From: Mustelus asterias
Lineage: Eukaryota
DNA length: 64,000 nt
Direction: 5' to 3'
Assembly: GCF_964213995.1 (NCBI RefSeq)
Contig: NW_027590338.1
Location: 124,001 to 188,000 of the forward strand
The position numbers and the translations under genes were made by a program. Below the pieces are notes generated by a model. The model did no database searches. It had not been told where the DNA came from and worked only from the letters and a program-made list of their open reading frames with translations. Positions 10,821 through 63,290 of the stretch are shown one piece after another (position 1 is the first letter of the stretch; each line of letters begins with the position of its first letter).

Positions 10821-11163
10821 AGTTTCAAACAGAAATAGTGACGAAATATCTCTGAACTTCCTCACACCCTGTCACTCTGTGATCCTTGTGAAATTTAAAA
10901 CCAGGTATTCGCAACAAGACTCAAAGAGCATCAGTCCACTGGAAGTAAAGTTGTGAGACCGGCCAGTCCAGCAGAAAGAAACCCTCCGACCCTCCCCATT
11001 GACCAACTGTGAGAATGAACAAAATGCAGTCCTGGATGTAATTGAGAGCAGAAACAACAACAGCAGAATCAAACCCCTGGAATCACTCGTGAACTTGTTG
11101 GTGTCTCAGCAGGTGGGATAAAAGACTGAATCTCTTCTCACACACAGAGCAGGTGAATGGCCT

Positions 11164-11757
11164 CTACCCAATGTGAATTCGCTGGTGTGTCAGCAGGTTG
11201 GATGAATCACAGAATCCCTTCCCACATTGAGAGCAGTTGAATGGTCTCTCCCCGGTGTGAACTCGTTGGTGTTTCCGCAGGTTGGAAGACTGAGTGAATC
11301 TCTTCCCACACTGAGAGCAGGTGAACGGCCTCTCCCCGGTGTGAACTCGCTGGTGTTTCCGCAGGTTGGAAGACTGAGTGAATCTCTTCCCACACTGAGA
11401 GCAGGTGAACGGCCTCTCCCCAGTATGAATGCGCTCATGGACCGGCAGGTCGGAAGATCGACTGAATCCCTCCCCACACTGAGAACACGTGAATGGCCTC
11501 TCCCCAGTGTGAACTCGCTGGTGTCTCTGCAGGCTGGATGACTGAGTGAATCCCTTCCCACACTGAGAGCAGATGAACGGCCTCTGCCCAGTGTGAACTC
11601 GCTGGTGTTTCTGCAGGCCGGATGAGTAGGTGAATCCCTTCCCACACTGAGAGCAGGTGAATGGTCTCTTCCCAGTGTGGCTGCGCCGATGAGCTTCCAG
11701 CAGAGATGGGGATCTGTATCTCTTCTCACAGTCCGCACATTTCCATGGTTTCTCCAT
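11164..11757 (-). CDS. C2H2 zinc-finger protein, 7 fingers; an eighth finger lies behind a premature TAG (ZNF-3)
   Basis: MEKPWKC start; GAG>TAG in the linker at 11164-11166; a further finger runs to ~11085, followed by the conserved tail. Confidence 0.8.
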
Positions 11758-14001: not shown

Positions 14002-14142
14002 CTGCAAGTCCCCAATTTCCCCCAGAATGAGAAAAGAAATGGAAAGGGGGAGAAAAGAAAGTGTTTTACTCACAGATGTTGGCCTCTTTAAAGGAATGCA
14101 GTGCCAATTTGCAGATAGCACAGAAAGCCAGCAAAGGGGCCC

Positions 14143-14195
14143 TGCCGAAACCCGGGATTGAACCAGGGACCTTTAGATCTTCAGTCTCACACTCT
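14143..14195 (-). pseudogene. 5'-truncated tRNA-Phe(GAA) gene fragment
   Basis: Reverse complement agagtgtgagactGAAgatctaaaggtccctggttcaatcccgggtttcggca matches the 3' ~53 nt of vertebrate tRNA-Phe. The 5' acceptor strand and most of the D arm are missing; the B box is retained. Confidence 0.9.
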
Positions 14196-14259
14196 TAATT
14201 GCTTGCACTTAATTGAAACAGGAGGAAGTTTGAATCTGCCTGAAGCTCAATCTTCAATC

Positions 14260-14640
14260 ACACAAGGCCCGCGCTCTGCTTGGCTGGAGGACCAGAATCC
14301 TTCCGGTCCTCCAACTCTTCCCATTGGCCAGAGCTGGTGAGGGGCAGTGAATCAAAAGTGCGCATGTGTGGGTTTTTAGGAGGAATGCGCATGTGCGGGT
14401 GTGGGGGGGGCCCGGGACAAAGCCGGCGCACTGACCATTGTCTGTCCGGGTCTTCCAACCTTTTCCAATGGACAACAGCTCAGCGCGGCTGGAGGGCAAA
14501 GTCCCGCCCACCCCCACGAGGGGCTCCGCCCCTCATTGTCTGTCTGCAGGGGATTGACCAATGGGAACTCTGGAGGACCGGAAGGACTCTGGTTCAGCTG
14601 CTCATTCCTGCACAGCAAAGCTGCTGCTGCTCTCTGTCTG
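14260..14640. promoter_or_regulatory. CpG-rich bidirectional promoter between ZNF-3 (-) and ZNF-4 (+)
   Basis: Two TGCGCATGTG (NRF1-like) motifs, several CCAAT/ATTGG, CCCGCCC and CCGCCCC GC boxes; inverted symmetric halves. Confidence 0.7.
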
Positions 14641-14692
14641 AATGAAGATTGAGCTTTCGACAGACTCAAGGAAGTGAAAAGAATCAGCCAAT

Positions 14693-14803
14693 GCCAACGG
14701 CAATACCAGACTGAAAACGCCTGACCTCGGAAGCTAAGCAGACTCAGGCCTGTTTAGTACTTGAATAGGAGACCTCCTGGGAATACTAGGTGTAGTAGAC
14801 TTT
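14693..14803 (+). pseudogene. 5S rRNA gene copy with ~10-nt internal deletion
   Basis: gccaacggcaataccagactgaaaacgcctga-cctcggaagctaagcagactcaggcctgtttagtacttgaataggagacctcctgggaatactaggtgtagtagacttt aligns end to end with vertebrate 5S, lacking ~TCTCGTCTGA. Confidence 0.9.
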
Positions 14804-14805
14804 AG

Positions 14806-15129
14806 GATGGCATGGTGGCACAGTGGTTAGCACTGCTGCCTCACAGCGTCAGGGACTTGGGTCAATTCCTGTTTTGAGTCACTGTCTGTGTGGACTTTGC
14901 ATGTTCTCTCCCCATGTGGGTTTCCCCCGGGTGCTCCGGTTTCCTCCCACGGTCCAAAAGATGTGCGGGTCGGGTGGATTGGCCATGTTAAATTGCCCCT
15001 TAGTGCCAGGGGGACAAGTTAGGGTAAATGCACAGAGGTACGGGGATAGGGCCCGAGTGGGATTGTGGTTGGTGCAGACTCGATGGGACGAATGGCCTCC
15101 TTCTACACTATAGGATTGTATGATTCTAT
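14806..15129 (+). mobile_element. HE1-like SINE directly after the 5S copy
   Basis: tggtggcacagtggttagc head; ...gattgtatgattctatg tail; replaces the exon-1 donor/intron of the leader module. Confidence 0.85.
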
Positions 15130-16110
15130 GAAGTGAATCCAGAGAGGGTGCAGACTCTGGAAAGGTTGGCCCAGGTCTCTCTCCCTCTCTTAAAGACATT
15201 GACGTTCTTTGCTCCCTCAGCTTGACACATTGATTTGCTTGGTTAAGAGGATGTTCTCTTTCCTAATGTTCAGAATTAAAGGGCTGCTTTCCCCAGGAGA
15301 TGGCTGACATTTAAGGGGACAGTAAATTAATATAGGACAGAGATATATCTTGTGATTTTTTTTGTCACAGATTAGATAAATTATTTATGGTTCTGCAATG
15401 AAGTAATTTATTCTTATTTATATTCTTGTAATATTGTTCTGTACCTCTGTTATATACTTCCAGTTATGGAGTCATTACAGCAAAGGGGTCCTTTCAGCCA
15501 CACACGTCCATCCTGACTCTTGGTCAAAGTGAAGCAGTGAACATGGATCTGTCAATCAGCCTCAATCAGCACCTTCAGGAGAATTGGGAGGGTGAGTATT
15601 AGATACAGCAGAGTGAGAATGGAGGGAGAGTGTGTGGGATGGAGATTCACAGGAATGAGAGAGGAAAGAATGTTCCATAGAAACTAGAATTGTCTGTTCT
15701 GAATTTCTATCCTGTACTGACACTGATGCATTTTGTAAACTCCTTTTACAGGATATCTGAAGGTGATGATTTGCAGGCAGAAATATCAAACCAAATGTCA
15801 CACTAAGATCTCACAAATTCACTCTATTTATCGGAACCTGAATATCATCAGTCTTTCAATTTAGAAGGATAAATATTTGTCTGTTCTGTCTTTTTCAGGA
15901 GATCTTCAATATCAGTGTGCCTGGAAAAGCACTGAAACACACACACACCTGAGTGAGCGTGTTCCAGTGCACGGACTGTGGAAAGAGCTTTAACACAGTC
16001 TGAAAAAACATTGCATCATTCACATCAGGGAGAGAAATTAATTGTGTTCTGTGTGTGCACGAGGCTTCAGCAGATCGTGAAACCAGCAGAGTCACAAGGA
16101 CACCTGCACC

Positions 16111-16785
16111 ATGGAGAAACGGTGGAAATGTGGGGACTGTGGGAAGGGATTCAATTACCCATCAAAGCTGGAAACTCATCGACGCAGTCACACTGGGGAG
16201 AGACCATTCACCTGCTCTCAGTATGGGAAGGGATTTAGTCAATTCTCCCTTCTGCTTACACACCAGCGAGTTCACACTGGGGAGAGGCCGTTCACCTGTT
16301 CGGAGTGTGGGAAGGGATTCAGCGATTTACCCACACTGCGGAGACACCAGCGAGTTCACACTGGGGAGAGACCATTCACCTGCCCTGTTTGTGGAAATGT
16401 TTTCAGCAATTCATCCACACTACTGACACACCAGTGAGTTCACACTGGAGACAGACCGTTCAATTGCTCTGACTGTGGAAAGGGATTCATTCGGTCATCC
16501 CACTTGCTGACACACCAGCGGGTCCACATAGGGGAAAAGCCATTCACCTGCTCTGAGTGTGGGAGAGGATTCAGTGATTCATCAAACCTGCTGACACACC
16601 AGCGAGTTCACACTGAGAAGAAGCCATTCAACTGCTCTGTGTGTGGAAGGGGATTCAAACATTCAGCAACCGTGATGAAACGCCAGCGAGTTCACACCAG
16701 GGAGAGGCCGTTCACCTGCTCCATGTGTGGGAAGGGATTCACATTGTTCTGCAACTTGCAGAGACACCAGCGAGTTCACAAATGA
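16111..16785 (+). pseudogene. C2H2 ZNF, 8 finger units, interrupted by in-frame TGA (ZNF-4)
   Basis: TGA at 16435-16437 (CGA>TGA); finger 2 has C>Y and finger 7 has H>R; the frame is otherwise continuous. Confidence 0.8.
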
Positions 16786-38689: not shown

Positions 38690-40250
38690 TCCATTGTGAC
38701 GTCTGGAACCTCCGAGCACTCCTTCATTGCGCATGCACCAGACCAGACACCATCCCCAGTAAATATGGCGGCTGTTCACACGGGCCTCTCTCGGGGAAAA
38801 GCCTGAGCAGCTTCCGCCGCTACAAACTCCGCATTGGAGCTTCGGCCCACACGGGATGTTTATGAGGCCTCTAAACCTACCCGCCGGCTCCATCCCTCCC
38901 TCATGACCCATCCCACGGTATCTCACCGGCTGATAATTTCCACAACCGTCTCGATCGTGAGTTCTCATCGGCACTGCGCATGTTCTCAGTCGCAACAGGA
39001 GTTGCGACTGAGAACAGTAGCCATCCTAGACCTTAGGACGGTCGTGCTCGGCCCCGAAACTGCACGCAAACTTGAGACGGCGCAGGCGTGCGGTGGGATC
39101 CCGCCCGAGCGTTCCCCTGTTCGGGCGGAATTCCACATTGGCCCAAAGCCTCAGCCCCCTCCCCTGGGTGAGGTGCCCCACAGCCTGAGCCGCCTCGCGG
39201 AAATGCCCTCCGTGCCTTTTTCTACCGCGCGGAGGCGTTTCCTGTGCGGGCTGCTGCTGCACACCTTCCACTACCGCCTCCTCGCCTGTCGCCCGGATAC
39301 ACCTTGGCGGGCCTTGTTGCCGCCGGGCGGCGGAGGTCCCCGCTGGAGGTCCCTCTACGGAGGGATCTCCCCCAATTACGTCGGGGACCTGGGGTGGAGG
39401 GTGATGCATGCAGCAGTTCCGCACAACCGTAGGATTCACTGGTTCACGGGCTCCGAAGACTGCCCTTTCTGTGGCCTTGTGGAGTCCGTGGACCATGTCT
39501 ATGTTGAGTGTCTTAGGCTGCACTCCCTTTATGTTTTCCTGAAGAACCTTTTATTGATGTTTTGTTTGCACTTCAGTCCCACGCTCCTGATCTACGGACA
39601 CCCGGTGCGGAGAGGGGAGGGTCGGGATGGCGACCTCCTCGTGAACCTGCTCCTGGGCCTGGCGAAACGCGCTATTTACCGGTCCAGGCAGCGGGCGATC
39701 GAGGGGGCCGTCCATCCTGACTGTCTTCCCCTCTACCGCGGCTACGTTCGCGGCCAGGTGTCCCTGGAGAGGGAGCATGCGGTGTCCACGGGCGAGGTTG
39801 ACGCTTTCCGCGCCCGCTGGGCACCGCAGGGGTTGGGGTGCATTATTGACCCTAATAATCACGTTTTAATTTGATGTTTTTTAAGTTTCCTTTGTATTTT
39901 GATTTCTGTTCGGACTGTTCCCCCTCCTTTTTGGGGAGCTGCCCCTTTTACTTTGTCCTGATTTAATTTGAGTTTGTTTACTTGGTTTGACCTAAAAAGA
40001 AAAAAAAACAGGAGTGTTCTGGTCTAGACCCGCCCCTCGTTCACTCCGATTGGCTGGAGGACCAGCCTCTCCTGCTCGGTCCTCCAGCCCCGCCCTCTCT
40101 TTCTATTGGTCCAGAATCGCCGTCAATCACTCCCAGGCATTGTGAACTGGAGCATGCGCAGTGCCGATGTTAGGATCGGGCTGCAAAGCCGCAGGAGCAA
40201 AGCCTCAGAGATTGAAATCAACGGGTTGTTGTAAAGCAGGAGGTCAGGGT
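38690..40250. promoter_or_regulatory. Bidirectional CpG promoter of ZNF-6/ZNF-7, split by a Tx1 insertion
   Basis: TGCGCATG x2, AAATATGGCGGC, GATTGG/TATTGG, CCCGCCCC, AGCATGCGCA on the two sides of the insert. Confidence 0.6.
39017..40006 (+). mobile_element. 5'-truncated L1/Tx1-clade LINE (ORF2 C-terminal zinc knuckle, 3' UTR, poly-A)
   Basis: CPFCGLVESVDHVYVEC motif, A tail, TSD AACAGGAGT at 38994-39002 and 40007-40015; CpG-rich, so probably young. Confidence 0.88.
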
Positions 40251-44490: not shown

Positions 44491-44659
44491 ATACAGATAG
44501 ACTGTTGTCTATCTTCTTCCTACTCAGCTTCTCTGAGCTGTGAACCGGGCAGCTGAAAGCTGATACTTATTAACTTTTTCTGGACACAGCCCCTTGTACA
44601 TGATCAATGGTGTTCCTGAACTCTGGTTCACATGATCAGTCTCTGATTGATTTAATTCC

Positions 44660-44980
44660 ATCTACAGGTCCAGGCAGAGGGCGATCGAGAGGGTCTCCAA
44701 CCTGTCTGCCCCCTCTACCGCAGCTATATTCATGGCCAGGTGTCCCTGGAAAGGGAGCATGCGGTGTCCAAGGGCACCACTGAAGCCTTCCGTGCCCACA
44801 GGGCACTGCAGGGACTGGGGTGTGTTATTGACCCCTTTAATCACATTTTAATTTGATGTTTTAAGTTTCCTTTCCACTTTGTTTTTTGTTTCGGGCGGTT
44901 CCCCTCCTTTTAGAGAGCTGCCACTTTTGAGTTGTCCCGAAGTTAAGCTGATTTTGTTTATTTGGTTGGACACAAGAAAG
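44660..44980 (+). mobile_element. Second Tx1-family 3' fragment
   Basis: Aligns with 39675-40000. Confidence 0.8.
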
Positions 44981-62879: not shown

Positions 62880-63130
62880 CTGCACCCTGGGCCCGGCACT
62901 GCGCATGTCCAATGGAGAGGGGAAGATGCGCATGTGCGGGGGGAGCCAACCTGTTGACCTGCTGCTTGAGGTGTTGGCCAATGGAAAGCTGGAGGACCGG
63001 ACGTTCTCTGGTCCTCAAGCCAATCAGAGCTCCCCCATTGTCTGAATGCGGAAGTTGGACAATGAGCTTGTTCAGCTGCTCATTCCTGCCCAGCAAAGCT
63101 GCTGCTGCTCTGTCTCTGAATGAAGATTGA
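62880..63130. promoter_or_regulatory. CpG promoter paralogous to 14340-14650
   Basis: Two TGCGCATGT motifs, several CCAAT, GGAGGACC..GGTCCTC dyad. Confidence 0.65.
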
Positions 63131-63240
63131 GTACAGACAGACTCAAACGTCTTCTGTCTCCAACATCTGTGAGTAAAATACTTTCTTTTTTCCCCCTTTC
63201 CATTTCTTTTCTCATTCTGGGGGAAACTGGGGACTTGCAG

Positions 63241-63290
63241 CAACTGAAAGGAAAGGAAGTGAATCCAGGGAGGCTGCAGACTCTGGAAAG
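63241..63290 (+). other. Predicted 50-nt leader exon 2 of a + strand ZNF gene beyond the window
   Basis: Intron 63169-63240 (GTGAGT..ttgcag, 72 nt); donor AAG|GTTGGC. Confidence 0.65.

Follow-up and report, generated by a model that had tools for sequence, protein, structure and literature searches.

Why should two divergently arranged zinc-finger (ZNF) genes carry pieces of RNA polymerase III (Pol III) genes in their leaders, a tRNA-Phe on one arm and a 5S rRNA on the other? An earlier note on the window (the whole 64,000-nt stretch of DNA analysed here, from a 3.68-Gb genome) had placed both pieces at homologous positions of one slot in leader exon 1, and had proposed that ZNF promoters recurrently capture Pol III loci at the DNA level. 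The slot turns out to be a preferred target site, CCAACATCT followed by GTGAGT, of a Tx1-like LINE; the tRNA-Phe lies in it and the 5S does not.

The ZNF modules and the empty slot

C2H2 zinc-finger arrays are clustered across the window. ZNF-3 has an array of eight fingers on the minus strand (11089–11739), with an in-frame stop in the linker preceding the last finger, and ZNF-4 has its array on the plus strand (16129–16779), with an in-frame stop in the fourth finger. Between them lies a divergent promoter region (14256–14612) with CCAAT-like and GCGCATG motifs of putative promoter function. The exon structure, including exon 1 and its splice donor, is predicted from sequence. The ZNF-3 leader 5′ of the insertion, a predicted non-coding exon 1, occupies 14216–14255 on the minus strand and the LINE target CCAACATCTGTGAG occupies 14069–14082, overlapping the predicted exon-1 donor (GT at 14073–14072). 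The ZNF-4 leader (14613–14669, plus strand) runs up to the left border of a 108-nt deletion, with the loss of both target and donor.

The uninterrupted leader that had been reported near 63121–63174 is indeed found at 63122–63174 (plus strand) and serves as the empty comparator. The two further empty leaders, at ~2.4 kb and ~3.0 kb, are both only partial, and the 2.4-kb copy lacks the GTGAGT donor. ARAGORN found no tRNA gene in the window, and the sole Rfam match at gathering score in the whole window is the 5S copy at 14693–14801. Among the joints listed for the ZNF-3 arm in RNA contigs from four runs, none links exon 1 to exon 2, a result made uninformative by heavy cross-mapping of paralogs; in a screen of 22 RNA runs by sequence words, no run contained half of the words.

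The tRNA-Phe insert of ZNF-3

Between the ZNF-3 leader and the target, the minus arm holds an insert of 133 nt (14083–14215). It agrees well with the earlier description of ~130 bp containing the 3′ ~53 nt of tRNA-Phe and a trailer, without CCA or poly-A, and this piece and the 5S are both in the sense orientation of their own ZNF exon, as had been stated. Read in the sense of the gene, the insert begins with a scrambled 5′ end (14196–14215) made up of a 6-nt filler, 9 nt (14201–14209) matching the native leader and the first two tRNA bases, and a 5-nt filler that stands in place of tRNA positions 3–20, which include the A box. Positions 21–73 of tRNA-Phe(GAA) follow at 14143–14195, with the B box intact and no CCA. 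Next comes a 48-nt 3′ trailer of the native tRNA-Phe gene (14095–14142), which breaks off after the first two bases of the native T4 terminator; compared with the native 670-bp array on contig C3, identity is 92% over 101 nt, and the first T4 is at trailer position 47. The final 12 nt (14083–14094), CCTTTAAAGAGG, are the last 12 nt of the Tx1-like LINE, whose own end reads CCTWAAAAGAGG. By its native leader bases and its trailer, the piece looks like an unprocessed pre-tRNA.

The duplication at this insert is 3 nt only, so that no donor is re-created upstream and the piece is predicted to be exonic. All 15 ZNF copies of the Phe insert (a count that, like the locus counts below for Arg, Gly, SNORA41 and 5S, may include uncollapsed haplotigs) have both junctions in common, and the Phe cargo is therefore a single event. 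In the subgroup of Phe copies to which that of the window belongs, two substitutions at 14190 (minus strand) create a donor-like hexamer within the tRNA piece, which the remaining Phe copies lack. The intact B box has the sequence expected of an ETC or TFIIIC site. Neither arm holds a complete tRNA or 5S gene with an intact internal promoter, the A box being absent from the one and the other having a 10-nt deletion and C-box changes.

A Tx1-like LINE behind the slot

The main tail found on the slot, GACCTWAAAAGAGG, belongs to a LINE with an APE endonuclease domain (PF03372, E 4e-6) and a reverse transcriptase (RT) domain (PF00078, E 4e-35) in ORF2. A 745-aa piece of ORF2 is 53% identical over 99% of its length to the Xenopus Tx1L ORF2 (YTX2_XENLA), the best named full-length match in a similarity comparison restricted to long proteins; full-length proteins from fish and unnamed ones reach 35–40%. 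The LINE that drives insertion is thus likely to be Tx1-like, as judged from protein similarity. Many of its copies have 12–16-bp target duplications, with 14–15 bp frequent, and the inserts in the slot measure between 6 nt and 8.7 kb, their 5′ junctions differing and their 5′ truncation points being many. Re-created targets have been struck again at four loci (L095, L105, L109 and L203).

How strongly is the site preferred? The donor 18-mer occurs exactly 718 times in the genome, and 375 of these occurrences have non-canonical bases just upstream, a number that takes in a few point variants; together with the share of filled modules given below, it puts use of the slot well above chance. Among the first 30 non-canonical loci, 27 have the tail of a family-A or family-B LINE directly on CCAACATCT; the other three are point variants or not clearly readable. 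In a hand tally of 884 kb of ZNF clusters, a non-random set from four contigs partly picked for known matches, 13 of 44 modules are filled at the slot base, 30 are empty and the last is the arm with the 5S; another four modules, along with several 3′-only fragments, were left out of the tally because the slot in them is absent or ambiguous. Nine of the 13 fillings are LINE sequence (five truncated copies of family A, three elements of family B and a full LINE headed by tRNA-Val), and small-RNA cargoes account for the other four. Elsewhere in the 375-nt module there are scattered insertions of SINEs and other repeats, single or duplicated, and no tRNA-gene piece was found at any other module position in the 884 kb. 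An excess of Pol III-derived inserts at the slot over other module positions, the absence of which the earlier note had named as refuting its reading, is present in this sample. The proposal that the slot subfamily consists mostly of the Phe cargo was rejected, most of its members being LINE ends; a pattern that leaves out long LINE ends still gives 99 matches at the slot.

Seen from the side of the LINE, 81 exact 3′ ends stand on CCAACATCTG, and 80 of them are on ZNF-cluster contigs. At least 1092 exact family-A ends are present genome-wide, with ~7% on the ZNF site, and of the first 100 LINE ends listed, 99 are off-site, with a loose (G/C/A)CA start. A strictly site-specific LINE of the R2/Keno type was rejected on these numbers: the LINE prefers the multicopy ZNF target strongly, not strictly. 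Of 15 dispersed LINE copies, three resisted parsing and a fourth was parsed wrongly.

Several other arrangements were met in the course of reading these loci. The window itself holds a 5′-truncated copy of the same LINE outside the slot (39019–40000, plus strand; 93% to L096 over 982 nt) and, at 44658–44971, an older 3′ remnant from a related LINE (81% identical). An LTR-retroelement-like protease/RT fragment is nested within a LINE copy (L118:3981–6000). A second element, with units of ~1.2–1.9 kb that end in AAACAAAAAGAAA and have no long ORF (L094, L129, L136 and L132), uses the same target with 15-bp duplications and tandem copies. At some loci (C306 segment a; L066, L072 and L080) the LINE tail adjoins TCTCTCTGAATG, another site in this leader that lies ~50 nt further upstream. 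The downstream duplication copy reads CCAACATC even where the upstream copy is GCACCATC or similar (L142, L143, L093 and others); this mismatch could come from an RNA-templated flank or from recombination among paralogs, and the search pattern also selects for CCAACATC. At two loci without a ZNF leader, L138 (C13) and C1:59087385, the LINE tail is joined to the ZNF donor and the start of the intron, possibly by 3′ transduction; L138 holds a deleted tRNA-Gly piece.

Other cargoes at the same base

The recurrence of Pol III pieces in the slot, as the earlier note had it, is confirmed: the tRNA pieces represent no fewer than four independent events (one Phe, two Arg and one Gly), besides tRNA-Val heads. 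The Arg cargo is a pre-tRNA-Arg(ACG) of full length, preceded by a 5-nt leader and followed by a trailer that runs to TTTT; its duplication is 14 bp, and two junction types occur. Its trailer has 56 of 60 matches on cluster contigs; no native array with the exact trailer was found, only degenerate native-like genes. Counting further independent Arg insertions from differing upstream haplotypes was given up, since the common downstream flank points to recombination among paralogs. The tRNA-Gly(GCC) cargo carries ~115 nt of upstream spacer within a duplication of ~6 bp. Its native counterpart is a Gly-Gly pair lacking any T4 between the two genes, and the cargo stops precisely at the first T4 of this pair; of 40 candidates scored, 23 lie on cluster contigs, and 19 junctions were read. 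A scan for T-run and tail junctions returned 13 matches, four of them Gly cargoes and nine LINE ends or unassigned. The Arg, Gly and Phe cargoes all end at T-run terminators and carry the LINE 3′ tail, and the small-RNA cargoes retain 9–14 nt of the LINE.

Not every cargo is a Pol III product. The 3′ 100 nt of SNORA41 form a further cargo, found in 24 of 25 matches, which ends six matching bases beyond the Rfam 3′ end. SNORA41 is a Pol II snoRNA. This cargo and plain LINE fragments use the same site, so that the slot has no specificity for Pol III.

Some slot LINEs are themselves headed by a tRNA. Seven of nine exact tRNA-Val(GAC) pattern matches (L333–L341) are 5′ heads of such LINEs, while C89 and C166 hold the other two as native-like genes. 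A captured copy of the exon end and donor comes after the head in several of the tRNA-Val-headed LINEs. GAC anticodons are rare in eukaryotes.

Four copies of a tRNA with the tail lie outside ZNF modules, so that capture is characteristic of the LINE itself, with the slot as a frequent landing place. Three of them have a recognisable duplication of their own (L168, L184 and L201), which encloses the whole tRNA and tail unit in L201 (12 bp) and L168 (8 bp); in L202 it is weak.

The 5S unit of ZNF-4

The 5S copy claimed for the divergent ZNF-4 arm is present at 14693–14801 (Rfam, 59.8 bits), 23 nt past CAGACTCAA, but it is not at the slot. From left to right on the plus strand, the unit begins with the left copy of a TSD-like duplication, GAAGTGAA (14671–14678), followed by a 14-nt 5′ flank (14679–14692) of which 6 nt are unmatched and 8 nt resemble the native 5S upstream spacer (7/8). 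The 5S pseudogene (14693–14803), which ends in TTT, has lost 10 internal nt and differs by 12 substitutions, G82A and G85A among them. Fused to its 3′ end is a full-length tRNA-derived SINE (14804–15129), which we take to be HE1-like. The HE1 SINE is listed for sharks and rays in the accessible part of one report (PMC3747384), and from the likeness of its main SINE to HE1 we describe the genome as shark-like. The right copy of GAAGTGAA stands at 15130–15137, where the conserved intron block resumes.

A single native copy of GAAGTGAA lies ~90 nt into the intron, and that is where the flanked 5S unit belongs; the homologous position suggested for the tRNA-Phe and 5S pieces does not stand. Compared with the copy at 63 kb, the ZNF-4 arm lacks 108 nt (63147–63254), including target and donor, and it is because of this deletion that the 5S adjoins the leader. 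The arm junction is found at 38 cluster loci, and all 30 loci that were read have a 5S that terminates in TTT, is fused to the SINE (interrupted by another repeat in some) and has no LINE tail. With another site and no LINE tail, it cannot be counted as a second cargo of the same slot. It is likely, on the arrangement of flanks and fusion, a separate 5S-SINE fusion that would have inserted at GAAGTGAA in the intron.

The fusion may have formed by template switching or by insertion of a SINE behind a 5S pseudogene, in either case at another site and by another route. No native 5S with the 14-nt flank was found, 38 of 41 matches being on ZNF contigs and the remaining three being two-mismatch matches elsewhere; nor was a deletion-only precursor of the arm, for which there is one one-mismatch match on a non-cluster contig. 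A search with an 18-nt 5S pattern found the 5S 3′ end joined to the SINE start at six non-ZNF loci as well, none with a convincing duplication. The native 427-bp 5S array (L081–L083, C5) has units with the same 10-nt deletion as the ZNF copies, and seven of 50 Rfam matches in the native array score ~90 bits, versus 98–113 for full-length units. In the C box, all 30 ZNF copies carry G82A, and 25 of them a further change. The changed bases are presumably contacts of TFIIIA.

Origin of the cargoes

We consider it probable that the slot is a recurrent insertion site of the Tx1-like LINE and that the tRNA-Phe was copied from a pre-tRNA through a template switch of its RT. In such a mechanism, the endonuclease would cut the ZNF donor site and prime reverse transcription there on the LINE 3′ end, and after ~12 bases of its own LINE RNA the RT would switch template, as modelled for U6/LINE chimeras. 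A small RNA of the nucleus, with a U-rich 3′ end, would be reached either by a jump of the enzyme or through RNA ligation to the LINE RNA. Ligation before reverse transcription would fit as well as a jump. The partners would be a pre-tRNA, a read-through precursor of two tRNAs or a 3′-extended SNORA41. Segmental duplication of ZNF genes would then have multiplied each event, to 15 loci for Phe, ~56 for Arg, at least 23 for Gly and 24 for SNORA41, and the separate 5S-SINE unit would have been duplicated to 38. Where the 14-bp duplication is complete, it would re-create the GTGAG donor upstream and leave the insert intronic and harmless; this is a plausible reason why a splice donor may be tolerable as a target. 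By default the cargoes are expected to be passengers.

Several observations sit badly with this origin. The Phe insert of the window, with its 3-nt duplication and scrambled 5′ end, would not by itself pass for a textbook retrocopy; the Gly and 5S pieces, one with ~115 nt of spacer upstream and the other with 8 nt resembling spacer, would need read-through transcripts; and a deficit of mutations in Pol III boxes fits pure neutrality poorly. The loose site preference of the LINE, the failure to find a native array with the exact Arg trailer and the lack of convincing duplications at the six other 5S-SINE fusions also weigh against it. That ZNF promoters took up pieces of tRNA and 5S loci as DNA into one homologous slot could draw on the upstream spacer within the Gly and 5S pieces, and on native tRNA genes that lie on the same contigs as ZNF clusters (C87, C89 and C166). 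But every tRNA cargo read has the LINE tail, and the three whose source or T-run can be read (Arg, Gly and Phe) stop at the terminator; most of the fillings (nine of 13) are LINE sequence itself, the 5S is at another site without the tail, and SNORA41 is not Pol III. We hold the DNA-level capture of the earlier note to be most improbable.

An unlikely though conceivable alternative is that the cargoes are proto-SINEs, in which a tRNA gene gained the LINE tail, was transcribed as a unit from its own A and B boxes and was re-inserted into ZNF slots by the LINE. Arg variant 2 fits this, having the same junction and diagnostic changes on C10 (L202) and at ZNF slots (L143 and L162), which hints at a possible SINE-like re-mobilisation between two sites. 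The window Phe cargo and L168, at different sites, likewise have the trailer and the CCTTTAAAGAGG tail variant in common; 10 of 12 distinct Arg cargo sequences still score as tRNA, and the boxes are under-mutated. Yet flanks and 5′ junctions are common within each cargo family, as segmental duplication predicts, the other off-cluster copies (L184 and L201) differ in junction, and the window Phe copy has no A box from which it could be transcribed.

The under-mutated boxes bear equally on whether some cargoes, once acquired by template switching, were then retained, their B boxes perhaps recruiting TFIIIC at ZNF promoters in a barrier or architectural role. When derived alleles are counted with CpG sites excluded (an earlier version that counted differences from the source gene was replaced), the A and B boxes or the internal control region carry 14 against 26.9 expected, pooled (Poisson P ~0.005), in a test that is post hoc, uses related copies in which gene conversion is possible and leaves fixed changes uncounted. 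By cargo, the values are 0 against 3.6 for Gly, 6 against 12.4 for 5S, 0 against 0.5 for Phe and 8 against 10.4 for Arg, so that the pooled deficit is weak and driven by Gly and 5S. The B box of distinct Phe copies is unchanged, with no box variant, and sites that have only a B box (ETC sites) bind TFIIIC in yeast, according to the accessible part of PMC3395662. On the other side, the C box of the 5S has changed as described above, the Pol II snoRNA cargo has been equally amplified (24 loci), and both ZNF arrays of the window have in-frame stops. We regard such retention as unlikely, and co-option of the cargoes by the host, for instance as insulators or structured 5′ UTRs, as doubtful. A wider scheme is similarly speculative: the tRNA-Val-headed Tx1 LINE would use the first donor of ZNF genes as a self-repairing safe haven and convey nascent Pol III transcripts into their promoters, some of them now being selected proto-SINEs or TFIIIC-bound cis-elements. 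If it were true, subfamilies of a ZNF family of several hundred genes would have gained a new promoter-proximal element.

Comparison with known systems

Copying by template switch at a LINE target, the reading that we prefer, has close relatives. In the accessible text of PMC4494074, the Tx1 clade includes Xenopus Tx1L, Keno (U2), Kibi, Koshi and Tx1-Mar, and that of PMC3706591 gives Dewa, with the tRNA-Leu spacer as target, and Mutsu, with 5S. The LINE described here resembles them in its APE and RT ORF2 (53% to Tx1L), a multicopy target, mid-length TSDs, tandem re-insertion and an RNA-gene 5′ head, such as the U1 or U2 head that PMC4494074, in the same part, describes for some crocodilian Tx1-Mar families. 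It differs in that it inserts at what is predicted to be the first splice donor in a protein-coding family, its head is tRNA-Val(GAC) followed by the captured exon-end copy, and its preference is loose (~7% of exact family-A ends on site). The splice donor of a protein-coding family thereby joins the list of Tx1 targets; we found no report of a ZNF-exon target for Tx1 in the open-access literature searched.

The cargoes, in turn, resemble U6/LINE chimeras (Doucet 2015, PMC4476161), in which, by the accessible part of that report, a sense small RNA ending in a U tract is joined to a 5′-truncated LINE 3′ end; Phe, Gly and Arg are all sense small RNAs joined through the 3′ U tract to the LINE 3′ end. 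Such template-switch chimeras, within one TSD, are there described for L1, L2, RTE and SINE partners. Here, in contrast, the small RNAs are unprocessed pre-tRNAs, two-tRNA precursors and a snoRNA, with 9–14 nt of LINE, one recurrent site and a Tx1 partner. Human tRNA/L1 and 5S/L1 chimeras (bioRxiv 10.1101/2025.02.02.635956, accessible part) also unite a tRNA or 5S with a retroelement in a single insertion; there, the 21 tRNA loci are mostly half-length and antisense and are ascribed to twin priming, whereas the cargoes here are in sense, with leader and trailer. As for pre-tRNA/Tx1 chimeras, no report was found in the open-access literature, judging from search listings. The crocodilian SINEU elements, by the accessible text of PMC4494074, are alike in being non-autonomous, headed by a small RNA and directed to a target common with Tx1 LINEs, but they form true families, while most copies here are single events followed by segmental duplication.

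What makes the slot useful is that the first step of SINE birth, a tRNA head gaining a LINE tail, is repeated at one readable site with empty controls alongside. The ~100 tRNA-cargo loci, set against hundreds of empty paralogs, make insulation of Pol II promoters by B boxes directly testable. The retrocopies probably also preserve nascent Pol III transcripts in fossil form, and among these would be vertebrate precursors with two tRNAs. At L168/L046 (C70), a tRNA-Ser(TGA), a 36-nt spacer and a tRNA-Phe lie within one 8-bp duplication, and at L240 (C2058) there is a native Gly-Gly pair without T4 between the genes; from their sequences, the retrocopy and the pair suggest that such two-tRNA Pol III precursors may be made. 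Degenerate tRNA-Glu, Gln and Arg genes in native context occur inside one ZNF cluster (C87:2129229–2129677, 2191266–2191300 and 2199436–2199510), and the leader and trailer of the Arg gene there resemble those of the Arg cargo.
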